A program made the position numbers and the translations under genes. Below the pieces are notes generated by a model that saw only the letters and a list, made by a program, of their open reading frames with translations, ran no database searches and was not told where the DNA came from. From an uncultured Solirubrobacterales bacterium (GTDB taxonomy: Bacteria; Actinomycetota; Thermoleophilia; Solirubrobacterales; Solirubrobacteraceae), in the NCBI GenBank assembly GCA_963770885.1, contig CAVYRI010000002.1, positions 29,265 through 93,264 of the forward strand: a DNA stretch of 64,000 nucleotides. The letters run 5' to 3'. The stretch's first letter is position 1; each line of letters opens with the position of its first letter. This document shows positions 35,688 to 64,000 of the stretch, piece by piece.

Positions 35688-37217
35688 CTAGCCCAGTTCG
35701 GTGTCCCAGCCGGCGATCAGCAGGCGAGCTGCCTCGACGTCAGGATGCAGCGGCCGGTCGCTCAGATCGGAGTTCAGATGCTCGGTCGCGGCCTGCCAAA
35801 GCGCCTGCGTCCCGGCCGCCTTGGGCTCGTAGCCGGCGAGCCGCAGCGCCCGCACGGCTACCACCAGCTCGGTCGCGACCGCCACGCGGAGCGCATCGAT
35901 CGCCTCGTGTGCTCGCCGGGCGGCGATCGGGGCCAGGCTCGAGTGCGACTCAACGCCGCGCGAGACCGTGACCGTCTGCGCGGCGACGGGCGTGACCAGT
36001 GAGCGGACCTCGGCGACCGCGGCGTGGGCGGTGTACTCGAGCACCAGCGCGCCCGACTCCGGGCCCGGCTTGCGCGCCAGAAACGGCGGCAGGCCGGTCA
36101 GGGTCGAGTCCAGCAGCGTGCTGACCCGGGCGGCGATCAGCGCGGCCGACTGGGCGACCGCCGTCCTGACCCCGTCAATCGCGTTGGCGAGCGGCGCCGC
36201 GTGGGGGTTGCCGTTGGGCAGCGCGATGTCGTCACCGGGGACGATCAGCGCGTTCTCACCGGCGAAGTTGAGCTCGTGGCCGACGGTCTCCTCGAGCGCG
36301 TTGAGCGCGTCGTGCACGGTTCCATCCACCTGCGGCTGGGCCCGGAACGGGTACGGATCCTGAACGCCGAGCGGCCCAGGCGCCCGGGTCCGCTCGCCGA
36401 CGCCCTCCAGCAGCTCGCGCATCCTGGCCGCGACCGCCGCCTGGCCCGGCCGGTGGCGCCACGAGTGGATCCGCGGGTCGAGCACCACCGGATCGGCGGC
36501 CGCAGCCTCGAATGACAGCGCCGCGACCGTCAGCCACGCATCGAGCAGCCGCCGCGCGTCGACCACCAGCAGCGCCGCGCGCCCGATGCTGACCGCGTTG
36601 GAGCTCATCAGGGCGAGACCGTCGCGGCCGCCCAGCCGGGCCGCCTGGAGGCCTGCGTCATGCAGCGCAGTCGACGCATCGAGCAGCTCCTCGCCACGCC
36701 ACACCTGTCCCTCGCCGAGCAGCGCCAGTCCGATATCGGCGAGATTGGTCAGGTCACCGGTGCCAAGCGACCCCAGCTCGCGGGTGAACGGCGACAGCCC
36801 GGCGTTGAGCAGGTTGACGAGCGCGTCGAGCAGCTCCCGCGCGACGCCGGCGCCACCGGCGCCGATCTGGTTGGCGCGGGTCGCCATCGCGGCCCGGACG
36901 AGCTGCGCGGGCAGCGGCTGGCCGGCGCCGCACGCATGGCTGCGCAGCAGGCTCAGCGAGTACTGCTGGCGGCGGTTCTTCGGCACCCGGTAGGCGCGCA
37001 GCGCGCCGACGCCGGTGGTGACGCCGTAGAGGTCGTCGCCGCGCGCGAGCAGCGCCGCGATCGCGTCGCGGGCGCGGTCGTTGCGGGCGTGCGCCTCGGG
37101 CGCGAGCTGTGCCCGGGCGCCCTCGCGCGCGATCAACGCGACCCTCTTTGGCGTCAGCGTCGCGCCGTCGAGGATCACGGGCGCGGTGGTTTCTGTCGCG
37201 AGCTGTTGCAGAGCCAT
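35688..37217 (-). CDS. aromatic amino acid lyase (HAL/PAL) family protein lacking the ASG/MIO motif (lyase 1)
   Basis: YGVTTGVG, RSHACGAG, GSLGTGDL in place of GSxGASGDL, QDPYPFRAQPQ, NGNPH. Confidence 0.85.
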   Translation of the reverse strand: MALQQLATETTAPVILDGATLTPKRVALIAREGARAQLAPEAHARNDRARDAIAALLARGDDLYGVTTGVGALRAYRVPKNRRQQYSLSLLRSHACGAGQPLPAQLVRAAMATRANQIGAGGAGVARELLDALVNLLNAGLSPFTRELGSLGTGDLTNLADIGLALLGEGQVWRGEELLDASTALHDAGLQAARLGGRDGLALMSSNAVSIGRAALLVVDARRLLDAWLTVAALSFEAAAADPVVLDPRIHSWRHRPGQAAVAARMRELLEGVGERTRAPGPLGVQDPYPFRAQPQVDGTVHDALNALEETVGHELNFAGENALIVPGDDIALPNGNPHAAPLANAIDGVRTAVAQSAALIAARVSTLLDSTLTGLPPFLARKPGPESGALVLEYTAHAAVAEVRSLVTPVAAQTVTVSRGVESHSSLAPIAARRAHEAIDALRVAVATELVVAVRALRLAGYEPKAAGTQALWQAATEHLNSDLSDRPLHPDVEAARLLIAGWDTELG

Positions 37218-37270
37218 CGCCAACGCACTCTAATCCCGTCGGCGACTTCGCGGCCAGTATCGTCGGCCGG

Positions 37271-38794
37271 ATGGACGGGTCCGTGACACTCACCGGTTGC
37301 GACCTCGATCCCGCGCTGCTGGCGGCGATCGCGCGCGACGGCGCCGCGGTCGAGATCGATCCGGCGGCGCGGGCCCGGATTGCAGCCGCCCACGCGACCG
37401 TGGAGCGAGCCGTCGCGGACGGGAGGCCGATCTACGGCGTCACGACCGGGCTTGGATCGAGGGTCGGCGAGCTGGTCGCCGGCGTCGACGGGGCGGTCTA
37501 TTCGCTGCGGACGCTCCGAGGCCGGGCGGCGGCGGTCGGCCCAGCGCTCGACCGCGAGCTCTCGCGCGCGGCGATGGCGGTCAGGTGCAACGGGATCTGC
37601 GCCGGCGGGTCGGGCGCCGGTCCGGCGGTCGCCGACGGGCTGGCGGCGCTGCTCAACGCGGGCGTGCACCCGCGGATTCCCGAGAGCGGCTCGGTTGGGG
37701 CGGCGGATCTGGTGATGCTCGCCTACGTCGGTCTGGTGTTGATCGGCGAGGGAGAGGCCGAGCTCGACGGCGAGCTGATGTCGGCGTCCGACGCGCTGGT
37801 GCGCTGCGGCCTTGAGCCCGTCGCGCTCGGGGCCAAGGACGGCCTTGCGATCTGCTCGAGCTCGGCGGTCAGCGCCGGTGCGGCGGCGTTGGCGCTGCTG
37901 GACGGCGAAGGCTGCCTGGCCTCCGTCCAGGTCTCGGCGGCGCTGTCGATGGAGGGCTTCAGAGCCAACCTGACGCCGATCGACGAACGGGTCGCGGCGG
38001 CCCGGCCGGCTCCTGGGCAGGAATGGGCAGCGGGCGGGCTGCGAGCGCTGCTGGCCGACGGCTCGCTGACCGAACCGGGGTCCGCACGCCGCCTGCAGGA
38101 CCCGCTCAGCTTCCGTTGCGCGAGCCAGATCCACGGCTCGTTACGCACGGCGCTCGACCAGCTGGCTGTCGCCGTTGACGCCGAGCTCAACGGCGCGGCC
38201 GACAACCCGCTCGTGCTGACCGCCGACGATCAGATCCTGTCGACCGGCAACTTCCACGTCCCGGCGCTCTCGCTCGCGCTCGATTCGGCGGCGATTGCCG
38301 TCGCCCAGGTGGCGGCGACCGTGGCCGAGCGCCCGGCGCGGCTGCGCACCCGCGCTTTGAGCGGGCTGCCGGCCGGACTCGTCCGCGGCGACGACGTCAC
38401 CCGCACCGGCGTCTCTCCGCTGCTCAAGACAGGGCAGGCGCTGACGCTCGAGATCCGCCACCTCGCCGCGCCGCTGGCGATCCATGCGACCGTCAGCGCC
38501 GAGGGCGTCGAGGATGACTCGACCGGCGCCACGCAGGCGGCGCTACGCCTGCGAGAGCAGCTTGCGAAACTGAGGCTGCTGATCGCGGTCGAGCTGCTGG
38601 TTGCGGCCGAGGCGGTGCAGCTCGCGTCGCCGGCCCGGTTGGGGCGCGGCACCGAGGCGGCGCAGCGTTGCGTTCGTGAGCTCGTCGCCGGGGTCGACCA
38701 CGACCGGCCGCTCGGCCCGGACGTGGAACTGCTCGCGGGGGAGGCGCTCGCGTCCGGGCGGCTGCTGGACCGCGTCCGGGAAGCGCTCGCTTGA
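37271..38794 (+). CDS. aromatic amino acid lyase (HAL/PAL) family protein lacking the ASG/MIO motif (lyase 2)
   Basis: IYGVTTGLG, GSVGAADL, LGAKDGL, LQDPLSFRC, DNPLV, TGNFH, GVEDD; TATCGT 7 nt before ATG. Confidence 0.87.
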   Translation: MDGSVTLTGCDLDPALLAAIARDGAAVEIDPAARARIAAAHATVERAVADGRPIYGVTTGLGSRVGELVAGVDGAVYSLRTLRGRAAAVGPALDRELSRAAMAVRCNGICAGGSGAGPAVADGLAALLNAGVHPRIPESGSVGAADLVMLAYVGLVLIGEGEAELDGELMSASDALVRCGLEPVALGAKDGLAICSSSAVSAGAAALALLDGEGCLASVQVSAALSMEGFRANLTPIDERVAAARPAPGQEWAAGGLRALLADGSLTEPGSARRLQDPLSFRCASQIHGSLRTALDQLAVAVDAELNGAADNPLVLTADDQILSTGNFHVPALSLALDSAAIAVAQVAATVAERPARLRTRALSGLPAGLVRGDDVTRTGVSPLLKTGQALTLEIRHLAAPLAIHATVSAEGVEDDSTGATQAALRLREQLAKLRLLIAVELLVAAEAVQLASPARLGRGTEAAQRCVRELVAGVDHDRPLGPDVELLAGEALASGRLLDRVREALA

Positions 38795-39811: not shown

Positions 39812-41465
<1,654 letters not shown>

Positions 41466-42716: not shown

Positions 42717-43831
42717 GGAGCGCGTCGATTCCCGCGATGGCCAACGCCCACAGCCACGCGTTCCAGCTCGACCTGCGCGGGGTCGGCGAGCGGCCGCACC
42801 CCGGCGATGACTTCTGGAGCTGGCGCAACGAGATGTACCGGCTCGCCGGCAGCCATGACCCGGACTCGATGCGCGCCGTCGGCGAGCGAGTCTACGGCCA
42901 GATGGCGGCCGCCGGGTACGGCGCGCTGGGCGAGTTTCACTACGTCGTTCACCAGCCTGACGGGACGCCGTACCCCGAGCCCAACGCGATGGCGATCGCG
43001 CTTGCGCAGGCGGCCCTGGCATCTGGACTGGAGATCGTGCTGCTGCCCGCGGCCTACAACCGCGGCGGCGCCGGGCGCGCGCCAGATCCGGGCCAGCGGC
43101 GCTTCTGCGACCCCGACGTTGCGACGTTCCTTGAGCGCACCGACCGGTTGCGCGAATGGGCCGACGGCCAGCGGGGTGTCAGCGTCGGGGTCGCGGTCCA
43201 CAGCGTTCGCGCGGTCGGAGCCGACTGGATCGAGGCGATCGCCCGCTACAGCGACGAGCACCGCCTGGTCCGTCACGTGCACGCATGCGAGCAGCTGCGC
43301 GAGCTGTCCGAGTGCGACGCCGAGCACGGCTGCTCGCCGATCGAGTTGCTGCAGCGCACCGGCTTCCTCGGTCAGCGGTGCAGCGTCGTGCACGCGATCC
43401 ACGTCAGCGACCGCGACGTCGAGCTGCTCGCCGCGACCGATTCGATCGTGATCACCTGCCCGACGACCGAGGGCAACCTCGGTGACGGATATCTGCCGGC
43501 GCTGCGCTACCGCGATGCGGGTGTGCGGCTCGCGATCGGGACCGATTCCCAGGTCCGGATTGACCCGTTCGAGGAGCTGCGCGAGATGGAGACGCTCGCG
43601 CGCCGAGAACGCCAGACGCGCTATGCCCTGCTCGAGGCGGCCGACGGCGACCTCTGGGGGCAGACGGTCGCCAACGGTCGCGCGAGCCTGGGACTGTCGG
43701 GCGCAGGGCGTGAGGTTGAGATCGATCTCGATTCACCTGAGCTGGCCGGGGTGGCCGAGCGGGACCTGCCGCTCGCGCTGGCGACCTGCGCGTCGGCGGC
43801 GATCGTCCGCGGCGGGGGCGTTCGACGATGA
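42713..43831 (+). CDS. hutF: formimidoylglutamate deiminase
   Basis: [59 protein letters not shown]. Confidence 0.9.
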
Positions 43832-45219
43832 CGGTCACGCTGGCGCGCCGCGCCGACATCGACCTTGACGCGTTCAGGCGTGTGGCGTGGGAGGGTGAGG
43901 CGGTCTCGGTCGACCACGCTGCACTCGACGAGGTGGCCCGGCGGCGCGAGCAGTTTTTGACCTTCGTCGCGGCCAATCCCGACCGCAGGTTCTACGGCGT
44001 CAACGTTCACGCCGGGGAGGGCGCCAACCGCGCTTTGAGTGCTTCGGACCAGCGCGACTACGCGCGCGGCCTGCACAGCGGCACCTCGTTCGGCGAACCG
44101 CTGCCGCAGCGGGTGGTACGCGGGGTCGTGCTCTCCAGGCTGGCCAACTTCATCGAGGGCCACGCCGGGGTCAGCGCCGAGCTGGTCGAGGTCGTGGCGA
44201 GCCGACTCGACGGCCGGCGGCTCCCGCCGGTGCCGCGCTACGGAAACGGCGGCGCGGGCGAGATCCAGGCGCTCGGCTGGCTGTTCGAAGACGTCGGCGA
44301 GGAGCTGGCGCTCGGCGTCAAGGAGCCGATGGCGTTGATCAACGGCGCGCCGTGCGCCCCGGCGCTGCTGGCCGACGTGGTGCTCGTCGCCGAGCTGGTG
44401 ATCGAGGTTGTGCAAGCGGTCATGTGCCTGGCGGCCGCCGCGCTTGGGGTGGCCCCGGTGACCTATGACCGCCGGCTCGACGCGCTGTGGGGCGACCCGT
44501 TTCAGGCTCAGGCGCTGGCGGCGATCCGTGCCGCCCTGAACGGCGCCGACAAGCTGGAAGGCCTCGAGCACGCGCAACCTCCGGTGTCGTTCCGGATCCT
44601 CCCGCGCGTGGTCGGCAACGCACTCCGGGTCCTGGCCGCGGCCCGCGATGCGGCCGCGATCGCGCTGCCGGCGGTCAGCGACAACCCCGTGTTCCTGTTC
44701 GATGACGGCCCCGAAGACATGGTCTCAAACGGGGGCTTTCACAACGCCGCCGCCCCGGCCTGCATCGATGCGCTGACGTTCGCGCTGGCTGACTTCGCGC
44801 AGCTGGCCCAGCACCAGGTGCAGCGCCTGCAGACCAGCCCGCAGGCGCTGCCCGGCCTCGACTCGCTCGGGCTCGGCACGATGCAGATGGTGGCCGGGGG
44901 CTATGCCGAGGAGGCGCGAGCAGCCGCGGTTCCGTCACTGCTGCCGCTGTCGGGGTTCGGTCAGACCGACGTGCCGGCGCCCGCGTTCTTTGCCTACAGC
45001 CGCTTTGACCGTGTCCGCGGCTTCCTGCTCGGCTCGCTGACGTGTCTGGCCGCGCTCGCCGCCCAGGCGCTGGCGCGTCCCGGCCGGACCGTGCCCGGAG
45101 CCTTGGGCGCGCTCCAGGCCGCGGTGCTCGCCGCCTGTCCGCCGATCGCCGAGCGTCGCTCGCTCGGCCCGGAACTGTCGGCGCTCGCGGCCGCGATAGC
45201 TCCCGAGATCCCCGCCTGA
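43828..45219 (+). CDS. highly divergent aromatic amino acid lyase family protein, no MIO motif (lyase 3)
   Basis: FYGVN, RLANFIEGHAGVS, GNGGAGEI, KEPMALINGAP, QPPVSFRILP, SDNPV, NGGFHN; 463 aa. Confidence 0.78.
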   Translation: MTVTLARRADIDLDAFRRVAWEGEAVSVDHAALDEVARRREQFLTFVAANPDRRFYGVNVHAGEGANRALSASDQRDYARGLHSGTSFGEPLPQRVVRGVVLSRLANFIEGHAGVSAELVEVVASRLDGRRLPPVPRYGNGGAGEIQALGWLFEDVGEELALGVKEPMALINGAPCAPALLADVVLVAELVIEVVQAVMCLAAAALGVAPVTYDRRLDALWGDPFQAQALAAIRAALNGADKLEGLEHAQPPVSFRILPRVVGNALRVLAAARDAAAIALPAVSDNPVFLFDDGPEDMVSNGGFHNAAAPACIDALTFALADFAQLAQHQVQRLQTSPQALPGLDSLGLGTMQMVAGGYAEEARAAAVPSLLPLSGFGQTDVPAPAFFAYSRFDRVRGFLLGSLTCLAALAAQALARPGRTVPGALGALQAAVLAACPPIAERRSLGPELSALAAAIAPEIPA

Positions 45220-55073: not shown

Positions 55074-56768
55074 TCAGCTCTTGTAGGCCGTGTTGAGGTA
55101 TAGCTGCGCGATCGAGGTCGGGTTCAGCCCGCCCACATTCGGCGTCGAGGCGGTCAGGCCGTCGATCCAGTACGGGATCACGATCGGCGTCTCGTTGAGC
55201 AGCAGCGTCTCGATCTTGCCCGCGATCTGCTTCTGCGTCGTCAGATCGAGCGCGGCGACGTACTGCTTGACGAGCGCGTCGTACTGGCTGTTCTTGAAGT
55301 GAGCCGCGTTCCACGGCCCCGTCGAGGTCAGCGGTGCCTCGAGATAGACGTTCGGCACGCCACGGTCCCCGTAGTCGACAAGGCTTGCCGTGCCGTCCAG
55401 CCAGTCGGAGTTGCCGTACGTCGCCTTGCCGTAGTAGAGCGTCTGGCTCTCGATCTTGAGATCGAAGTTGATCCCCGCCTTGGCCGCGTCCTCCTTGATC
55501 ACCTGTGCCAACTGGGGGATCTCCTGGTAGACCTCGGTGAACAGCGGCGCGCTGATTCCGGATGAATGGCCCGCCGCCGCCAGCAGCTGCTTGGACTTGG
55601 CGATGTCCTGCTCGCGCTGCGGAAGCGAGAGATCCGAGGACGGGAACCGGGGCCCGAACGGCGTGTCGTTGGCGACCGTGCCGTAGCCGCCGAGCAGCGC
55701 GTTGACCATGCCCTTGCGGTCCAGCGAGTAGGCGACCGCCTGACGGACGCGGGCGTCGGTGAACGGCGCCTGGTCGTTGCGCATCGACAGCTCACGATGG
55801 TTGGCCGACTTGAGCTGGATGATCTTGTAGGAGGGGTTGTGAAGGATCGCCGTCGCGCCCGCCGGCACGAACTGCGCGATCACGTCGACCGAGCTTCCCT
55901 GCAGCGCGAGGATCATCGGCGGCTGGCTGGCGTAGAACTTGAACGACGTGCTCGCCAGCAGCGGCTTGGGCCCCCAGTAGTTGGGGTTGGGCACGAACGA
56001 CGCGCCGACGTTGGTCGTGTAGCTCGAGAGCTTGAAGGCGCCGGTGCCGACGAACGTCTTCTGCCACTTGGAGAAGTCGGTTCCGTTGGGAACGATGATC
56101 GCGTTGTAGTTGTCTGACGAGACCAGGTACGGGAAGTTCCCGTTCGGCGACTCGAGATGGAACTCGACCGTCGTCGAATTGACCTTCTTGACGCCGTCGG
56201 GAGTGAGCACGCTGGTGAACGTCGACAGCGCGTTGGAGGCGTTGTTCTTGTCCGATAGCTGCTTGAACGTGTAGACGACGTCGTCGGCGGTCATCGGCGC
56301 CCCGGTGCTGAACTTCACGCCGGGGCGGAGCTTGAAGGTCCACACGCTGCCGTCACCGTTGTGGCTCCAGCTGAGCGCCAGCATAGGCTGCAACGCGAGC
56401 TTCAGGTTGCTGTCGAAGATCAGGAACTCGCCGGTCTGGTTGAGCATGCACAGACCGCCCGCGTCGGCCACCGTGAGCGGGTTGACGGCGGCCGATGGGG
56501 TCACCGATGCGACCTGGAGCGTGCCGCCGGACTTCGGCGCGGCGCCGCTGGTCGACGACGCGGCGCCCGCCGACGAGGACGAGGAAGAACTGCCGCACGC
56601 GGCCAGGATCGTCCCCAGCAGCACCGTGGACATGCCAATCGTGCTGCCCCGGCGAAGGAACTGACGGCGATCGATCCGCCCCGCGAGGAGCTCGTCGATG
56701 TAGTGGTTTTCGAGTTCGCTGCGTCCGGCGCGGATCTCATCGAGCCTGCGCGTCTGATCCTTATCCAT
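55074..56768 (-). CDS. family 5 ABC substrate-binding lipoprotein with twin-arginine-like signal
   Basis: IDRRQFLRRG...LAAC lipobox, Ser-rich linker, PMLALSW, WTFKLRPGVKF, VGTGAFKL, PFTDARVRQA; ATG 56768 after AAAGGAAG. Confidence 0.9.
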   Translation of the reverse strand: MDKDQTRRLDEIRAGRSELENHYIDELLAGRIDRRQFLRRGSTIGMSTVLLGTILAACGSSSSSSSAGAASSTSGAAPKSGGTLQVASVTPSAAVNPLTVADAGGLCMLNQTGEFLIFDSNLKLALQPMLALSWSHNGDGSVWTFKLRPGVKFSTGAPMTADDVVYTFKQLSDKNNASNALSTFTSVLTPDGVKKVNSTTVEFHLESPNGNFPYLVSSDNYNAIIVPNGTDFSKWQKTFVGTGAFKLSSYTTNVGASFVPNPNYWGPKPLLASTSFKFYASQPPMILALQGSSVDVIAQFVPAGATAILHNPSYKIIQLKSANHRELSMRNDQAPFTDARVRQAVAYSLDRKGMVNALLGGYGTVANDTPFGPRFPSSDLSLPQREQDIAKSKQLLAAAGHSSGISAPLFTEVYQEIPQLAQVIKEDAAKAGINFDLKIESQTLYYGKATYGNSDWLDGTASLVDYGDRGVPNVYLEAPLTSTGPWNAAHFKNSQYDALVKQYVAALDLTTQKQIAGKIETLLLNETPIVIPYWIDGLTASTPNVGGLNPTSIAQLYLNTAYKS

Positions 56769-57663
56769 GACTTGACTTCCTTTCGGTGGCAATCGATCCT
56801 GCGCCGGCCGCTGCCGCGGAATCGACGCTTACATCACTAATTCGATCAAATTTGGTGGGGGACGGGTCTTTGGCGGGGGGCAGGTCAGCCAGGGGGGCGA
56901 GTGATCGCGCTGCGCTGATTAGGTCAGGGAGCATTTCAGCCTTTCGCTCGGACGTCATCCGCCCGCTGGGGATGCACAACGTGAGCGCGGCGGCGACGCG
57001 GCCCACCGGCCCGACCCGCACCGCGACGCAATGGAGTCCGAGCGCGGTCTCGTCGATGTTCTCGCCGTAGCCACGTTCGCGCGTCCGCTCGAGGATCAGG
57101 TGGAGCTCGTCCAGCCCGCCGAGCCGCCGCCCGGTCGGGGTCACCAGCTCCCTGCCGGCGAACATCGCGTTGACCCGTTCGCGCGGCAGGTCGGCGAGCA
57201 GGACGCGGCCCGCCGCGGATGCGAACGCCGGCAACCGGCTCCCGACCGGGCTCACGAGCCGCACCGGGTGGGTCGTCTCGACCTTGGCCAAGAACAGGCT
57301 GTCGAGGCCGTCGAGCACCACCAGGCAGGTGGTCTCGTTGTGGCGCGCGACAAGCCGTCCGGCGACCGAGTGAAAGCCGTTGGTCAGCGCCGCCGCCGGC
57401 GCAGCTCGCGCGAGCCGAGCCGTGCGGGGGCCGAGCGCGAGCGTCGACGTGCCGGCGTCGCGCGCGATCCAGCCGCGCTCGAGCATCATTGAGCAGACCC
57501 GGTGCAAGGTGCTCTTGGGGGCGCCGGTCTCCCGTGAGAGCTCGGCCAGGGTCAGCGTGCCGCAGCCGTCAAGCGCGTCGAGCACGTCAAGCACCGTCGC
57601 GACGCCGGCTGAGCGAGCGCGCGGCCTTCGTGGCGCGTGGGGGCGCACCGCTGAACCTGCCAA
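56761..57663 (-). CDS. IclR family transcriptional regulator
   Basis: LDVLDAL..TLAELSRETGAPKSTLHR, ETTCLVVL, VGSRLPAFASAAGRVLLA, DETALGLHCVAV; both ends uncertain. Confidence 0.85.
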   Translation of the reverse strand: MAGSAVRPHAPRRPRARSAGVATVLDVLDALDGCGTLTLAELSRETGAPKSTLHRVCSMMLERGWIARDAGTSTLALGPRTARLARAAPAAALTNGFHSVAGRLVARHNETTCLVVLDGLDSLFLAKVETTHPVRLVSPVGSRLPAFASAAGRVLLADLPRERVNAMFAGRELVTPTGRRLGGLDELHLILERTRERGYGENIDETALGLHCVAVRVGPVGRVAAALTLCIPSGRMTSERKAEMLPDLISAARSLAPLADLPPAKDPSPTKFDRISDVSVDSAAAAGAGSIATERKSSHG

Positions 57664-57765: not shown

Positions 57766-59004
57766 CTAACGGTCAGGGCTCGGGCTGGCCGCGCGCGCCG
57801 CGGCAGCCCCCGCCAGCACCTCGGCGACTACCCGGGTCGCGGCGATGATCTCGTCGATGTCGGCGCCCTCCTGGGGGGTGTGGGACTCGCCGCCGTGGAG
57901 CGGGACGAAGACCAGCAGCGTCGCGATCTGCGCCGCCAGGTGCTGGGCGTCGTGACCGGAGCCCGACCAGGTCTTGATCGCGCCGATGCCGAGCGACCGT
58001 GCGGCGTCGACGGCGGCATCGGCGAGCCCTGGGTGCAGCGCCACCGGATCCCCGGTGCGGACCAGCTCGACGTCGACGGTCACCCCCCGGCGTTGCGCGA
58101 TCGCAGCCGCATCACCGCGGATCTCGGCCTCGAGTCGATCCAGCGACGGTCCCGAGATCGCTCGCGCGTCGATCGTCAGCCTGGCGGTACCCGGAATCAC
58201 GCTCACCGCCCCAGGCGTGATTTCGATCTCGCCTACGGTCGCAACCGTCTCTGGGTCCTCGGCGCTGGCGGCGGCCTCGACCGCGAGCACGAGCTCGGCG
58301 GCGGCGGCCAGGGCGTCATGGCGCTCCTCCATCGCCACCTCGCCGGCGTGGCCGGACCTGCCGGCGATCAGCCCCTGCAGCCGACGGGGCGCGGCGACCT
58401 TGGTGACCACGCCGAGCTCGCGCAGTGACCGCCGCTGGGCGACGTGGATCTCGGCGTGCGCGATCACGCGCCCGAGAGCCGGCTGGACGCGCGGCAGCTC
58501 GCCGACGGCCTGCAGATAGGTGACCCGCGCCTGCGCGGCGCTCACCCCGGCCGCGTCTCGGAAACGCTCGAGCTCACGCTCTGAGAGGGTGCCGACCAGC
58601 AGCCGCGAGCCAACGGTGCCGGCCGCGAAGCGCGGTGCCTCCTCGGCCGCGCAGACGAGCAGGCCCGCCCGGGCGCCAGCAGCGAGCCGTTCGCCGAGGT
58701 CATTGACGAGCTCGAGCCCGAGCACGGTCCCGAGCGCACCGTCGTAGCGGCCACCGTCGGGAACGGTGTCGACGTGTGAGCCGGCCGTGACGACCGGGCC
58801 GCTCCAGCCCGCGGGCAGCGCCCAGAGGTTCCCGAACGGGTCGATCCCGGGCTCCAGCCCGGCCTCGCGCGCCCAACCGGCGACGAGCAGCATCGCCTCC
58901 GCCTCGGCGGTCGAGAAGGCAGGGCGGTCGGCCCCGCCGGCAAGACCCCTGGCGATCTGCCACAGCTGCTCCAGGCGCGCGGCGATCCGCTCACGGTCAG
59001 GCAA
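57766..59004 (-). CDS. M20-family N-carbamoyl-L-amino acid amidohydrolase (allantoate amidohydrolase-like)
   Basis: DPFGNL, GSHVDTVPDGGRYDGALG, AAEE, GRSGHAG, DALAAAAE, PGAVSVIPG, SGSGHDAQ; TTG start overlapping upstream stop. Confidence 0.88.
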   Translation of the reverse strand: MPDRERIAARLEQLWQIARGLAGGADRPAFSTAEAEAMLLVAGWAREAGLEPGIDPFGNLWALPAGWSGPVVTAGSHVDTVPDGGRYDGALGTVLGLELVNDLGERLAAGARAGLLVCAAEEAPRFAAGTVGSRLLVGTLSERELERFRDAAGVSAAQARVTYLQAVGELPRVQPALGRVIAHAEIHVAQRRSLRELGVVTKVAAPRRLQGLIAGRSGHAGEVAMEERHDALAAAAELVLAVEAAASAEDPETVATVGEIEITPGAVSVIPGTARLTIDARAISGPSLDRLEAEIRGDAAAIAQRRGVTVDVELVRTGDPVALHPGLADAAVDAARSLGIGAIKTWSGSGHDAQHLAAQIATLLVFVPLHGGESHTPQEGADIDEIIAATRVVAEVLAGAAAARAASPSPDR

Positions 59005-60067
59005 GCGCGAACTCCGCCAACGGCTTGCCGAGCATCGCCTCGACCTCGGGGTAGACGCTCGGCTCCTTGACGCCGTCACCGAGCGGGACATTGGCCTTGG
59101 GCACGTGCAGGACGGCGACCTCGTCGCCCTCGCGGAGGTTGGCGATCGAGATGATCCTTCCGGTCTGCACCGACAGCGTCGCCAGGACGTCGGGGAAGGT
59201 GGCCAAGCGCTCGCCGCCCGACTCGGCGGTCAGGTACTCGTTGACGAATCCCAGCTCCAATTCATCGACGACGATCGTGCCGACGTCAAACGCGTTCTCG
59301 GTTCTCAGCTCGCGGCTGCGGACACGACCCTCCGCGATCACCGCGCCGCCGAGATGGTCGGCGGTCGTCTCGATCATCCGTCTCGGGCCGTCGGCCTCGA
59401 CGGCGAGGATCGCCTCGCCGAGCGCCAGCGCGAAGCTGATCGCGCCGACCGCCGCATGGCGGGCGACGAACGACGCCGGGAGCGGGTTGCGCGCGCACGA
59501 GATGAAGCCACCGGATTGCTCGGCGGCGGTGCGGAGCACGTTGGCGGTGTGGCGAACCGTGCCCCGGGTGACCACCTCGAGGTAGCGGTTCTGCGCCCGG
59601 TTGCCGCCTGCGACGGCCTGGACAGTCTGGTGGTCGTCATCGGCGGCGAGCCCAAACGAGCCCATCTTGCCGGTCGGGTGGGCGCGCCCGTCACCGGCGG
59701 CGTCGATCACCAGCGTGCCGAGCACCGCGGACGCGACCCAGCCGTTGCAGGTCGTCGAGGAACCGTTCTGGGCGGTGACGGTGCCGACGATCGGCGCGGG
59801 CACCGCCTCGATCAGCAACTGGAGCGCGCGGACATAGTCGCCCGGTCGCATCTCCCAGCCGACGGCGGCCGGCGCGCCGATCGCGCTCACCGTCGCGAGC
59901 ATCGCCTCGGGGTCGACCTCGCCCAGTGAGGCGAGCCGGGGCGTCCCGTACTGGACGGCGGTCGTGCCGACGAGCATTCCATGGTCGACCCAGCCGCCGC
60001 CACCGGCGGCGAGCACCGAGCCGCCCGCGACGGCTGCGTGGACGGCAGCCAGATCCAGGTCTCTCAC
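58997..60067 (-). CDS. DUF917 family protein (candidate thiohydantoin desulfhydrase)
   Basis: GGSVLAAGGGG, VSAIGAP, AQNG, VIDAAGDGRAHP..KMG, NEY, TFPDVL; 356 aa. Confidence 0.85.
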   Translation of the reverse strand: MRDLDLAAVHAAVAGGSVLAAGGGGWVDHGMLVGTTAVQYGTPRLASLGEVDPEAMLATVSAIGAPAAVGWEMRPGDYVRALQLLIEAVPAPIVGTVTAQNGSSTTCNGWVASAVLGTLVIDAAGDGRAHPTGKMGSFGLAADDDHQTVQAVAGGNRAQNRYLEVVTRGTVRHTANVLRTAAEQSGGFISCARNPLPASFVARHAAVGAISFALALGEAILAVEADGPRRMIETTADHLGGAVIAEGRVRSRELRTENAFDVGTIVVDELELGFVNEYLTAESGGERLATFPDVLATLSVQTGRIISIANLREGDEVAVLHVPKANVPLGDGVKEPSVYPEVEAMLGKPLAEFALA

Positions 60068-61710
60068 GGCTCACCTCCAATCGTCGGCAATCCAAGGCCA
60101 AACTCCCGCGCACCGGCCTGCGCTTGCTCGAGGCCCGCGTCGGCGTGGCGCAGAACGCCAAGCGCGGTGTCGACGTTCAGGGCGCCGGCGAGACGCAGCC
60201 GCGCGTCCTCGGTGCCGGTGGCGACCACGGTCATGCCGGCGCTCTGCGAGTAACCGGCGTAGCCACCGCCGCCGGCGTGAAGGGCGACGAGGTCCGCGCC
60301 GGCGGCCGTCGTCAGCAGCGCGTTGAGCAACGGCCAGTCGCTGATCGGGTCAGAGCCGTCGGGCATCGCCTCGGTGATTATGTTGGGGTGGGTCATCGCG
60401 CCGCCGTCCATGTGATCGCGGGTGAACGCGACCGGCGCCTGCAGCCGTCCGTCGGCGACCGCCTCGTTGACCGCGAGCGCCAGCCGCGCGCGCTCGCCGT
60501 GTCCGAGCCAGGCGATCCGCGCCGGCAGCCCCTGGCGGCTGACGTGTTCGCGCGCCAGCGCGATCCAGTTGACGATCCGCGGCACCCCGTCGAACAGCTC
60601 CAGGCAGAGATCATCGACGAGCTCGAGATCGCCGTCCTCACCCGACAGGCAGATCCAGCGAAAGGGCCCGATCCCGCGGCAGAACAGGGGCCTGATGTAG
60701 CGCGCGGTGAAGATGTCGATGTCGAGCGCCTCGGGAAGTCCGCCACCCGCCGCCTGAGGCCGGATGTTATTGCCGTAATCGAACGTGATCGCGCCCCGCT
60801 CACGCAGCTCCAGCATCGAGCGGACGTGAGCGACCAGCGTCGCCAGCGCGAGCGCCTCGAGCTTGCCCGGATCGCCGAGCCGCAGCGCGGCCACCTCGTC
60901 CATCGCGAGCCCCGCCGGCAGGTAGCCGCTGCGCAGGTCATGCGCGGCGGTCAGGTCGGTGACGACGTCGGGCACGACGCCGCGCCCGACCAGTCCCTTC
61001 AGCAGCTCGGCCGCGTTGACGGCGACTCCGACGGCCAGCGGGCGGCGATCGGCGCGGGCCGCGAGTGCGGCGTCGAGCGCCTCGTCGATCACGTCGGCGG
61101 CGAGATCGAGCTTGCCCTCGTCGAGCCGGCGGCGCACCTTGTCGGGATCGGCGTCGGCGACCAGGCAGACGCCGCCGAGCATCCGGGCGATCGCGACCGG
61201 CTGCGCGGCGCCCATCCCGCCGAGGCCTGCGGTTGTGACCAGACGCCCGCTCAGCGAGCCGCCAAAGTGCTCGCGTGCGACCTCGGCGAACGTCTCGTAG
61301 GTCCCCTGGAGCACTCCCTGGGCGCCGATGTACTGCCAGCACCCGGCGGTCAGCCCGCCCCACGCGATCAGGTTGCGCCGCTCGAGCTCGTAGAAGATCT
61401 CCGGCGTTGCCCAGCGGCCGACGAGGTTGCCGTTGGCCAGCAGGACAGCTGGTGAGCGCGGGCCGGTGGGCAGCACCGCGATCGGCTTGCCCGACTGGAC
61501 GATCAGCGTCTCGCCGTCGCCGAGCACGAGCAGCGCGGCGACGATCGCGTCGAGGCTGTCTCGGTCACGGGCCACCTTGGCGTGGGCGGCGTAGACGACC
61601 AACCGCTCGGGATCCTCGGCGATCGCGAGGTTGTTCTCCAGCAGTCGCAGGATCGCCTCCTGGCGCCAGCCGCGGCAGCGCAGAGAGGGTGCCCGAGGGG
61701 CCTCAGGCAC
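60064..61710 (-). CDS. divergent urocanate hydratase homologue (candidate thiourocanate hydratase)
   Basis: [90 protein letters not shown]; start uncertain (61710 or 61728). Confidence 0.88.
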   Translation of the reverse strand: MPEAPRAPSLRCRGWRQEAILRLLENNLAIAEDPERLVVYAAHAKVARDRDSLDAIVAALLVLGDGETLIVQSGKPIAVLPTGPRSPAVLLANGNLVGRWATPEIFYELERRNLIAWGGLTAGCWQYIGAQGVLQGTYETFAEVAREHFGGSLSGRLVTTAGLGGMGAAQPVAIARMLGGVCLVADADPDKVRRRLDEGKLDLAADVIDEALDAALAARADRRPLAVGVAVNAAELLKGLVGRGVVPDVVTDLTAAHDLRSGYLPAGLAMDEVAALRLGDPGKLEALALATLVAHVRSMLELRERGAITFDYGNNIRPQAAGGGLPEALDIDIFTARYIRPLFCRGIGPFRWICLSGEDGDLELVDDLCLELFDGVPRIVNWIALAREHVSRQGLPARIAWLGHGERARLALAVNEAVADGRLQAPVAFTRDHMDGGAMTHPNIITEAMPDGSDPISDWPLLNALLTTAAGADLVALHAGGGGYAGYSQSAGMTVVATGTEDARLRLAGALNVDTALGVLRHADAGLEQAQAGAREFGLGLPTIGGEP

Positions 61711-63088
61711 CGGCTGCCGCGGGCTCACGTGCCGTCGATCCGCGCTCACCCGGGGCGGCGCCGTGCTCGCGGGGAAGGACTGCGGGTACAAATCGGCCGT
61801 GGCCCGGAGCCGAGCCGACGCTGGTGCCGTCCCACACCTGCACCCCGCGCGAGAAGGCGGCGATCACCCGGCCCCGCAGGCGCCGGCCGGCGTACGGGCT
61901 CCAGCCGGCAGCCGTCACCAGCCGCGCCGGATCGATCTCCCACTCGAGCTCGGGATCGAGCACGAGGACGTCGGCGTCGGCGCCGGGCAGCAGGTTGCCC
62001 TTGCGGGGCCAGAGCCCGAACCGGCGGGCGGGCGCCTCGCTGACCAGCCGCACCAGTGCATGCGCGCCGAGCGCGTCGTGGACGAGCGGAACGATCAGCT
62101 CGACGCCCGGCGCGCCCGATGCGAGCGCGAAGATGTCGGGCCCGTGCTTGCGCTCCACCGGCCAGCCGACGTGGTCTGACGAGATCAGATCGAGGCCATC
62201 GACCGGCAGCGGTGCGGCGCGCAGCGGCGGGTTGATCTTCGCCTCGCCTCCCTGGCGCACCAGCTCGGTCTCGTCGAGCAGCAGGTAGTGCGGGCAGGTC
62301 TCTGCGGTCACGTCGACACCGTCGCGGCGGGCCGCGATCACCAGCTTCACCGCGCGGGGCGTCGAGACGTGGCAGATGTGGATGCGGACCCCGGTCGCGC
62401 GCGCCAACTCGAGCACCCGCGCGACGGCCTCGTGCTCGGCGACCGGCGGTCGCGAGCGAGCATGGGCGAGCGGATCGGCGCCACCGGTGGCGGCCTGCTC
62501 GGCCGCGATCCCGGCGCGGACTATCTCGTCGTTCTCGGCGTGGATGCCGGCCAGGCCGCCGGCCGCCGCGATCTGCTGGAACGCTGCCAGTAACTGCCCG
62601 TCGGGGATCCGGGGGAAGCGCTGCGGGTGGGTCTCGAAGGTCGAGAGCTTGAACGCGGCAGCCCCGGCAGCGACGAGCGCCGCGACCTCGTCGATCGCGC
62701 CGCGGGGCGGGACCGTCGCCCACAGACCGACATCGACGTGCGCCTCGCGCTCGACGTCGGCGACCTTGGCCGCGAAGGCGTCCACGGTGTCGATCGGACC
62801 GGCGGCGTCGTAGGGCATGTCGACGATCGTCGTCACGCCGCCCGCGGCGGCTGCGCTCGTGCAGCGCTCGATTCCCTCGCCGTCATAGCTGCGGGTGTGG
62901 ACGTGGACATCCACCGCGCCGGGGAGCAGCAGCGCGTCGCCGTAATCGATGCCACCGGGCAGTGGCTCGCCAACGTGCTCGATACGACCGTCGCGGATTG
63001 ACAGGCCAGCCCGTCTCGCGGCCCCGTTGAGGCCGAGAACCCTTCCCGAAACGTTCTCGATGGCTGAGATAGAGGTAGGGTATAACAC
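61703..63088 (-). CDS. cyclic amidohydrolase (allantoinase/hydantoinase/dihydroorotase family)
   Basis: PGAVDVHVH, AAAAGGVTTIVDMP, FKLS, HAEN, HICHVST, ETCPHYL, KINPPLR, SSDH, GADADVL; start uncertain. Confidence 0.88.
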   Translation of the reverse strand: MLYPTSISAIENVSGRVLGLNGAARRAGLSIRDGRIEHVGEPLPGGIDYGDALLLPGAVDVHVHTRSYDGEGIERCTSAAAAGGVTTIVDMPYDAAGPIDTVDAFAAKVADVEREAHVDVGLWATVPPRGAIDEVAALVAAGAAAFKLSTFETHPQRFPRIPDGQLLAAFQQIAAAGGLAGIHAENDEIVRAGIAAEQAATGGADPLAHARSRPPVAEHEAVARVLELARATGVRIHICHVSTPRAVKLVIAARRDGVDVTAETCPHYLLLDETELVRQGGEAKINPPLRAAPLPVDGLDLISSDHVGWPVERKHGPDIFALASGAPGVELIVPLVHDALGAHALVRLVSEAPARRFGLWPRKGNLLPGADADVLVLDPELEWEIDPARLVTAAGWSPYAGRRLRGRVIAAFSRGVQVWDGTSVGSAPGHGRFVPAVLPREHGAAPGERGSTAREPAAAGA

Positions 63089-63097
63089 CCATAGCTC

Positions 63098-64000
63098 ATG
63101 ACCATCGTCTCAGCTAACGAGAAGATTCTCCTCAGTGGCGATGGTCTGACCGTGGACGACGTGCTGGCGATCGCACGCGGCCGCGCGCGGGTCGAGCTCG
63201 ACCCGGCTGCGCTCGTCCGCGTTCGCGCGGCGCGCGAGGTCGTCGACCGGGTGCTGGCCAGCGGTGAGTCGGTGTACGGGCTCAACACTGGTCTCGGATC
63301 GCTGTCGCGCCACCACATCGCGCTCGACGAGATCGGCGCGTTCTCGTTCGCGACGGTCGCCGATCAGGTCTCCTCCTACGGCCGCCCGCTGCCGAGCGAC
63401 GTCGTGCGCGCGATGATGGTCTCGCGGGTCAACGGCATGCTGAAGGCCGGAGTGGGGGTGACGCGTGAGCTGATCGAGCTGCTGGTCGCATTGCTGAACG
63501 CCGACGTGCACCCGATCGTGCGGATGCTTGGATCGGTCGGTCAGGGTGACCTGTCGGAGATGGCCGACATCGGCAAGGTCCTGATCGGCCGCGGCTGGGC
63601 CGAGTACGAGAACGAGACCGTGCCCGGTGACGAGGCGCTGCGCCGCGCCGGGATCGAGCCGATCGCCTTGGGCCCCAAGGAGGCGCTCGGGTTGATCAGC
63701 GCCAACGGGGTGACGATCGGGCGCGGCTCGCTCGTCCTCGTCGACGCCGCCGACCTGATCGAGAGCATGCAGATCGCTGCGGCGCTCAGCTTCGAGGCGT
63801 TCGCGGCGAACCTCTCGATCATTCATCCGGCTGCCGATCGCGCCCGTCCCCACTCCGGTCAGCAGACCGCGAGCGCGCGGCTGCGCGAGCTGCTGGAGGA
63901 CTCCGAGCTGTGGCGGCCCGGTGCGGCCCGAAACCTCCAGGACCCGCTCTCGATCCGCTGCGTGCCGCAGACCCACGGCGCCGTCTATGACGCGCTCTCG
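63098..64000 (+). CDS. aromatic amino acid lyase family protein lacking the ASG/MIO motif (lyase 4; candidate ergothioneine/hercynine TMA-lyase), 3'-truncated by the window edge
   Basis: Own translation from ATG 63098 (missing from the ORF track, no stop before the edge): LSGDGLTVDDV, VYGLNTGLG, GSVGQGDL, LGPKEAL, ISANG, LQDPLSIRCVPQTHG; TATAAC at 63081-63086. Confidence 0.87.
   Translation, partial: MTIVSANEKILLSGDGLTVDDVLAIARGRARVELDPAALVRVRAAREVVDRVLASGESVYGLNTGLGSLSRHHIALDEIGAFSFATVADQVSSYGRPLPSDVVRAMMVSRVNGMLKAGVGVTRELIELLVALLNADVHPIVRMLGSVGQGDLSEMADIGKVLIGRGWAEYENETVPGDEALRRAGIEPIALGPKEALGLISANGVTIGRGSLVLVDAADLIESMQIAAALSFEAFAANLSIIHPAADRARPHSGQQTASARLRELLEDSELWRPGAARNLQDPLSIRCVPQTHGAVYDALS

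Follow-up and report, generated by a model that had tools for sequence, protein, structure and literature searches.

A putative ergothioneine-degradation gene cluster of uncultured Solirubrobacterales with a lyase from a separate MIO-less clade

A five-step aerobic pathway that breaks down the antioxidant ergothioneine (ErtA-E) is reportedly the subject of work by Muramatsu et al. on Burkholderia sp. HME13, and an in vitro reconstitution for Paenibacillus is said to have been achieved by Beliaeva, Leisinger and Seebeck in 2021. The DNA considered here, a stretch of 64,000 nucleotides that will be called the window (C2:29265-93264), comes from the genome of an uncultured Solirubrobacterales bacterium (5.8 Mb, estimated completeness 92.8%). 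Its last six kilobases carry a gene cluster in which the same five enzyme families are brought together: a lyase of family PF00221 without the motif for 4-methylideneimidazole-5-one (MIO), a urocanase homologue, a DUF917 protein, a cyclic amidohydrolase and an M20 carbamoylase. The cluster is likely to be a diverged actinobacterial version of the ErtA-E pathway. The pathway itself is published and has its curated models; what is new is the host lineage and the variant form of the first enzyme.

Two groups of characterized enzymes are close enough to that first enzyme to be compared with it. The ergothionase of Treponema denticola (TdETL; PDB 6s7j/6s7q; Maurer et al. 2019) has the PF00221 fold. 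Two preprints on Shewanella enzymes report that its Lys384 binds the thiolate and is essential, activity having been abolished by its replacement, and that the residue separates ergothionases from histidine-betaine lyases (10.1101/2025.08.13.670108, 10.64898/2026.04.22.720169). The latter are represented by Swoo_3913, a histidine betaine lyase, and SO_3299, an N(pi)-methyl histidine betaine lyase (10.1101/2025.08.13.670108, 10.64898/2026.04.22.720169). Both belong to PF00221, do without MIO and take trimethylamine off histidine betaines, as the lyase described here would. They are, however, periplasmic and coupled to flavocytochrome reductases, whereas the present lyase is coupled to homologues of ErtB-E.

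What the sequences show is gene content, family assignments, signature residues, conserved synteny and the lack of EgtD; the route that these genes would encode is inferred from them in all its substrates, in the way transport runs and in its regulation. Ergothioneine would be taken up, possibly by the APC-family permease that is encoded downstream of the lyase. The MIO-less lyase would split it into trimethylamine and thiourocanate; with so good a leaving group as trimethylamine, the reaction can do without MIO. The NAD-dependent urocanase homologue would hydrate thiourocanate to thiohydantoin propionate, from which the DUF917 protein would remove the sulfur as H2S, leaving hydantoin-5-propionate. 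Opening of that ring by the cyclic amidohydrolase would yield N-carbamoyl-glutamate, from which the M20 enzyme would release glutamate together with NH3 and CO2. Both of the divergent transcription units are probably under the control of an IclR regulator whose gene is coupled to that of the lyase.

The assignment of families rests on Pfam and on the dedicated models of NCBIfam release 20 (NF058530, thiourocanate hydratase; NF058529, thiohydantoin desulfurase; NF058538/NF058539, ErtD; NF058540, ErtE). For ErtB, ErtC and ErtD, the top-scoring NCBIfam models are those of the ergothioneine pathway. ErtC, the sole DUF917 copy in the genome, scores 427.5 bits against thiohydantoin desulfurase over the full length of the model, 12.5 bits short of the cut-off of 440 (its homologues in a sister genus reach 450-454 bits), and 296.7 bits against the S-methyl thiohydantoin desulfurase; a sequence search of the PDB with this protein gave no match at E <= 0.001. 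ErtB scores 746.2 bits as thiourocanate hydratase (cut-off 930), 703 as the S-methyl variant and 646 as hutU. ErtD scores 410.8 and 408.9 bits against the two ErtD models (cut-offs 600/650), the next family being allantoinase at 279. The lead of the non-methyl models over their S-methyl counterparts is 131 bits for ErtC and 43 for ErtB, on which ground an S-methyl-ergothioneine pathway was rejected as the principal interpretation. For the M20 carbamoylase the ErtE model ranks only fourth (245.7 bits, cut-off 520), behind generic amidase models: the generic allantoate amidohydrolase subfamily scores 290, and TIGR01879, the hydantoinase/carbamoylase family amidase, scores 265.5 and is passed (cut-off 204). 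Identity to proteins of other ert clusters is 41-48% for ErtD and 30-38% for ErtE. Since it fits the generic carbamoylase models better, the M20 carbamoylase may have been recruited separately, out of the broader family.

The urocanase homologue carries a signature that can be read independently of these scores. Its best PDB match is 7NED (620 bits, compared with 596 for the Geobacillus urocanase). The PDB labels 7NED only as "urocanate hydratase"; a DUF917-linked urocanase homologue of Paenibacillus matches it at 981 bits and the canonical urocanases at 646, and because of the 981-bit match 7NED can be identified with the enzyme of the Paenibacillus cluster. We take it to be the thiourocanate hydratase with which the pathway was reconstituted in 2021. 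When 20 DUF917-linked homologues, drawn from six phyla, are aligned, they have the blocks WGGLTAxxWQYIG, M(T/A)HPxIxTE and GGGGY(A/S)G(Y/F) in common. ErtB of the window has all of them, as WGGLTAGCWQYIG, MTHPNIITE and GGGGYAGY, and in this signature it agrees with the Paenibacillus-type 7NED. The genome's own HutU differs at the first two blocks, of which the second reads VASPERETE; for the third block the comparison is with the canonical urocanase 1x87, which has GGVGMGYS there. ErtB also has changes specific to its lineage (TDLTAAHD for TDQTSAHD, YSQSAG for YMTSAG), which are partly common to a Rubrobacteraceae locus.

It is at this point that one has to ask whether any sulfur chemistry takes place at all. 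A generic salvage of hydantoin, ureide or histidine-type nitrogen, with substrates free of the thio group for both the DUF917 protein and the urocanase homologue, could draw on the fact that ErtD and ErtE come from the broad allantoinase/hydantoinase and carbamoylase families, and that the urocanase homologue formally passes the hutU cut-off (646 > 375). Such a salvage is nevertheless highly improbable in view of a thiourocanate-type signature that is unlike that of the genome's own HutU, a DUF917 protein that comes near the thiohydantoin desulfurase cut-off, the inability of an MIO-less lyase to deaminate histidine (as the literature has it), and the presence of canonical HutH and HutU elsewhere in the genome. 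A plain Hut pathway was rejected on the last of these grounds and on the difference of the urocanase signatures: with a separate MIO-containing HutH and an intact HutU at hand, this gene set is not the histidine pathway. An earlier note on this DNA had proposed ergothioneine degradation from the match of the families; the ranking of the ErtB, ErtC and ErtD models, the preference for their non-methyl versions and the 7NED-type signature all support that proposal.

The arrangement of the genes is conserved. When species-representative genomes were scanned with an alignment of ErtC, 80 loci came up, 55 of which lie in Solirubrobacterales, Solirubrobacteraceae or unclassified Actinomycetota metagenome-assembled genomes (MAGs) and have an ErtC with an identity of 70% or more. 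All five genes in the layout ErtA <-> ErtD-B-C-E were found at 47 of these 55 related loci, and the arrangement is therefore not due to chance; seven of the remaining eight are cut by contig ends, and the eighth (L061) is without a close ErtE homologue. In even samples the trait is patchy: one of 300 other genomes of the phylum has an ErtC homologue, as do three of 150 genomes of the family, confined to two genera. Other hosts are Paenibacillus, Cohnella and Bacillus (gene order B-C-A-D-E-E), Obscuribacterales (A-B-C-D-E) and several Alphaproteobacteria (D-E-C-B). The divergent layout sets the present cluster apart from the B-C-A-D-E of Paenibacillus and from the collinear A-B-C-D-E of Obscuribacterales and of locus L007, while a nearby IclR-type regulator is something that it shares with several other ert clusters. 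Some Paenibacillus and Bacillus sp. loci (L070-L072, L077-L079, L081) have two tandem ErtE-like M20 genes after ErtD. The Rubrobacteraceae MAG locus L063 has ErtB and ErtC homologues (identity 62-64%), but what it has of ErtD- and ErtE-like genes is only distant (32-35%), and a lyase is missing within 15 kb; it may be a thiourocanate-only variant.

The lyase is cut by the end of the window, and was completed from the neighbouring part of the contig (L003 = C2:86000-104000; window coordinate = L003 position + 56735). The complete protein matches PF00221 over its full length with 451 bits. Ala-Ser-Gly is missing from its loop, GSVGQGDL, which falls one residue short of that of histidine ammonia-lyase (HAL; GSVG-ASGDL), as is also the case in the Treponema ergothionase 6s7j (SIGEGD, where the present enzyme has SVGQGD). 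The motif YGLNTGLGSL is present. Also retained are Tyr60 as the catalytic residue, Gln281, Arg287 and Asn317 as ligands of the carboxylate, the Npi-binding Glu419 and an S-x-N motif (residue roles from 10.1101/2025.08.13.670108, 10.64898/2026.04.22.720169). The Treponema enzyme is alike in its catalytic Tyr, its Gln/Arg/Asn ligands, the Glu of IEDH and in having S-x-N where HAL has N-G-T.

Several observations weigh against the assignment to ergothioneine degradation, most of them involving the lyase. Where the Treponema enzyme has Lys384, this one has Arg390 (in an ungapped alignment, 10 residues before the anchor R-x-L-A-N-P), and where it has the Ntau-binding His (HAL His83), this one has Gln90 (ADQVS, compared with NSHCL in TdETL and LSHAA in HAL). 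PDB scores barely separate the ergothionase 6s7j, which is the best match (252 bits), from HAL (228); a Paenibacillus cluster lyase scores 453 bits against 6s7j. Identity to the ErtA-type lyases of Paenibacillus is just 33-37%. The Gln/Arg clade of lyases to which the enzyme belongs is known from sequence alone, and a paralogue at 37109-38794, also MIO-less, does have Lys at the 384 position. As for the other enzymes, the one-to-one family match that the earlier note had called complete stands only at the level of families: of the four proteins for which a dedicated curated model exists, none reaches the equivalog cut-off, and the M20 enzyme is better accommodated by generic carbamoylase and allantoate-amidohydrolase models than by ErtE.

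Some of these facts could be accounted for by keeping the chemistry and changing the main substrate to a relative of ergothioneine, whether selenoneine, S-methyl-ergothioneine or some other histidine betaine substituted at position 2. That different substrate would then be reflected in the Gln90/Arg390 pocket, with its two departures from the characterized ergothionase at substrate-contacting positions, and in the TDLTAAHD and YSQSAG changes of ErtB. The scores below equivalog cut-offs would fit, and MIO-less lyases with other histidine-betaine specificities are now known. This is nonetheless unlikely: ErtC, already near its cut-off, does 131 bits better on the thiohydantoin than on the S-methyl model; Arg at 384 also occurs in clusters that pass curated Ert cut-offs; the positive charge for the thiolate is retained; and selenoneine would probably be a side substrate of the same enzymes and not the substrate of a separate pathway. 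The charge would be kept by Arg390, to judge from the alignment, whereas Swoo_3913 and SO_3299 have a neutral Asn or Gln at the Lys384 position.

The lyase was also placed in a tree of its homologues, drawn from a 50%-identity representative library, with clades named by their residues at positions 83/384. The Paenibacillus cluster lyases fall in the His/Lys clade, and the Treponema enzyme has the same two residues; Arg/Lys and His/Tyr are large clades; a small Gln/Arg clade holds the lyase that starts at 63098 together with its Solirubrobacterales relatives, and its sister is a His/Arg clade. The earlier note had guessed from YGLNTGLGSL and GSVGQGDL that the lyase might stand for a distinct clade, and this is borne out: it belongs to a separate MIO-less clade, outside the one that unites the characterized Treponema ergothionase with the Paenibacillus lyases. 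Gln90 is conserved throughout the Solirubrobacterales clade, and Gln for His is peculiar to it.

Arg at the 384 position is another matter. The sister His/Arg clade is embedded in collinear ErtA-B-C-D-E operons. That of L007 passes the NCBIfam cut-offs for ErtC (447), ErtD (766) and ErtE (555), with ErtB just short (899), and three Obscuribacterales-type genomes have the same gene order. In a second His/Arg clade, one lyase (L092) belongs to a full cluster, IclR-ErtD-E-B-C-lyase together with an OpuAC-type ABC transporter, and another (L090) lies beside an OpuAC-type ABC transporter alone. The exchange of Lys384 for Arg was discarded as a refutation because Arg is also found in three further lineages whose lyases lie in complete ert clusters, which makes it a regular feature of ert-linked lyases. 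Although outside the clade of characterized ergothionases, the lyase very probably works like one of them.

The paralogue with Lys at 384 might nevertheless be the true ergothionase, in which case the lyase at 63098 would act on some other betaine and merely be a neighbour of ErtBCDE. By its residues this paralogue is of the large, uncharacterized Arg/Lys clade. It has Arg for the Ntau-binding His, however, and it sits with hutI, hutF and a hutU of canonical signature, with neither a thiourocanate-type hydratase nor a DUF917 gene. The lyase at 63098, in contrast, adjoins ErtD in every related locus that is not cut (47 of 55), and its sister clades are embedded in ert operons. That the paralogue is the ergothionase of this genome is accordingly very unlikely, and the five-gene cluster with its own lyase continues to be the preferred reading.

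Table 1. Genes and intervals of the putative ergothioneine cluster and the other PF00221 genes of the window (window coordinates unless marked L003)
Feature	Position	Strand	Remarks
ErtA-like PF00221 lyase	63098..64000, cut by window end	+	putative ergothioneine trimethylammonia-lyase, without MIO motif
Complete lyase, 525 aa	L003:6363-7940 = window 63098-64675	+	window part = N-terminal 301 aa
Gap between divergent starts	63089..63097, 9 bp		ErtD GTG at 63088, lyase ATG at 63098
ErtD-like cyclic amidohydrolase, 461 aa	61703..63088	-	putative hydantoin-5-propionate amidohydrolase; Pfam Amidohydro_1
ErtB-like urocanase homologue	60064..61710	-	putative thiourocanate hydratase; Pfam: three urocanase domains
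ErtC-like DUF917 protein, 356 aa	58997..60067	-	putative thiohydantoin desulfurase (H2S-releasing step); S-Me-THD_N + S-Me-THD_C
ErtE-like M20 carbamoylase	57766..59004	-	putative N-carbamoyl-L-glutamate amidohydrolase; Peptidase_M20 + dimerisation domain
IclR regulator	L003:7940-8662, beyond window	+	GTG start overlaps lyase stop (TAGTG)
APC-family permease, 642 aa	L003:8686-10614, beyond window		3' of IclR gene; AA_permease_2 match
PF00221 lyase	35688-37223	-	GSLGTGDL; His/Tyr at positions 83/384
PF00221 lyase	37109-38794	+	GSVGAADL; Arg/Lys at positions 83/384
PF00221 lyase	43828-45219	+	GNGGAGEI; too diverged for a clean 83/384 reading

Reading of the open reading frames (ORFs), with the Pfam and NCBIfam scores, confirms the five gene families that the earlier note had placed here, and also the divergence of the lyase from a four-gene operon, with start codons 9 bp apart (Table 1). 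Extending the contig completes the lyase to 525 aa and uncovers the IclR gene and the APC permease on its 3' side, beyond which lies an unrelated kdp operon. The minus-strand operon has the order ErtD-B-C-E, ErtD being the first gene, and its likely start codons give overlaps of 4-8 nt. The ErtB ORF is open to 61791, but its likely start is the GTG at 61710, which overlaps the ErtD stop; ErtC starts with the GTG at 60067, which overlaps the ErtB stop (GTGA, 60064-60067); the ErtE ORF is open to 59091, but the TTG at 59004, which overlaps with the stop codon of ErtC, is its likely start, and in relatives the ErtE gene starts within a few bases of the ErtC stop. The four minus-strand genes are translationally coupled.

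The spacing between the starts of ErtD and the lyase is 8-10 bp, by extrapolation, in 47 relatives. A 9-bp spacing implies either that both promoters lie inside the opposite gene or that the mRNAs are leaderless. In the region of the two starts (window 63060-63125), blocks TAnnnT and ATCTCA inside the first ErtD codons are at least 90% conserved, and this in a genome that otherwise has mostly G or C at third codon positions. Several relatives lack a canonical start codon on the 5' side of the aligned N-terminus of ErtD.

The IclR regulator is found at 46 of the 55 related loci. Another IclR gene, at 56761-57663, was considered as part of the unit and rejected: it belongs to the next operon, and its synteny is limited to the closest relatives. 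The APC permease is possibly the importer of ergothioneine and is a candidate on account of its position; it was rejected as a fixed part of the unit, as it is present at only 26 of the 55 loci, or 26 of the 47 that are complete, and unrelated neighbours take its place elsewhere. Some 180 of its residues extend past the end of the Pfam match. An APC permease, linked to about half of the loci, distinguishes this cluster from ert clusters that are linked to MFS or OpuAC-type ABC transporters. EgtU is likewise a different kind of ergothioneine transporter, an ABC system. OCTN1, also an ergothioneine transporter, is outside the APC family.

The genome has six PF00221 genes. One of them, on another contig, encodes the canonical MIO-containing HAL/HutH (GSLGASGDL), and four, all without the MIO motif, lie within the window. 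The residue types of the lyases at 35688-37223 and 37109-38794 match large uncharacterized MIO-less clades, yet the former branches with a mixed His/His group. The sixth gene (C5:594224-595672, L094; 535 bits) has YGVTTGFG, and a simple pattern search found no GS[VLI]G..D[LI] loop in it. The intact canonical HutU (777 bits) is on contig C1. In the neighbouring hut-like operon, the hutU with the canonical signature (39812-41442; C2:69094-70706) is split over three reading frames, whose pieces cover model positions 9-309, 305-451 and 452-545. Either the gene is a frameshifted pseudogene or the assembly is in error here.

A search of the genome for a homologue of EgtD found none, although at 92.8% completeness absence is not proven. 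The organism is therefore probably a consumer of ergothioneine and not a producer, and the earlier note's framing of the locus as one from a producer phylum does not apply to this genome.

The consequences are, in the first place, ecological. The cluster extends the published degradation of ergothioneine to Solirubrobacterales, a common uncultured lineage of soil; it is carried by about 55 genomes at species level, most of which are MAGs that large surveys of soil have yielded. With EgtD missing from this genome, its bearer probably scavenges ergothioneine that fungi and other actinobacteria have made, as a source of nitrogen, sulfur and carbon. The second consequence concerns the lyases: those that are linked to ert genes span at least two distant MIO-less clades. 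Since Arg commonly replaces Lys384, degraders will be undercounted wherever a search depends on this Lys or on BLAST matches to the known ergothionases. It is rather unlikely that the Gln90/Arg390 clade and its diverged hydratase are tuned to a substrate other than ergothioneine or, instead, that ergothionase activity evolved a second time, in another MIO-less lineage, with Arg in the role of Lys384. If either were true, abundant soil actinobacteria that do not themselves produce ergothioneine would be a major sink for this thiol.

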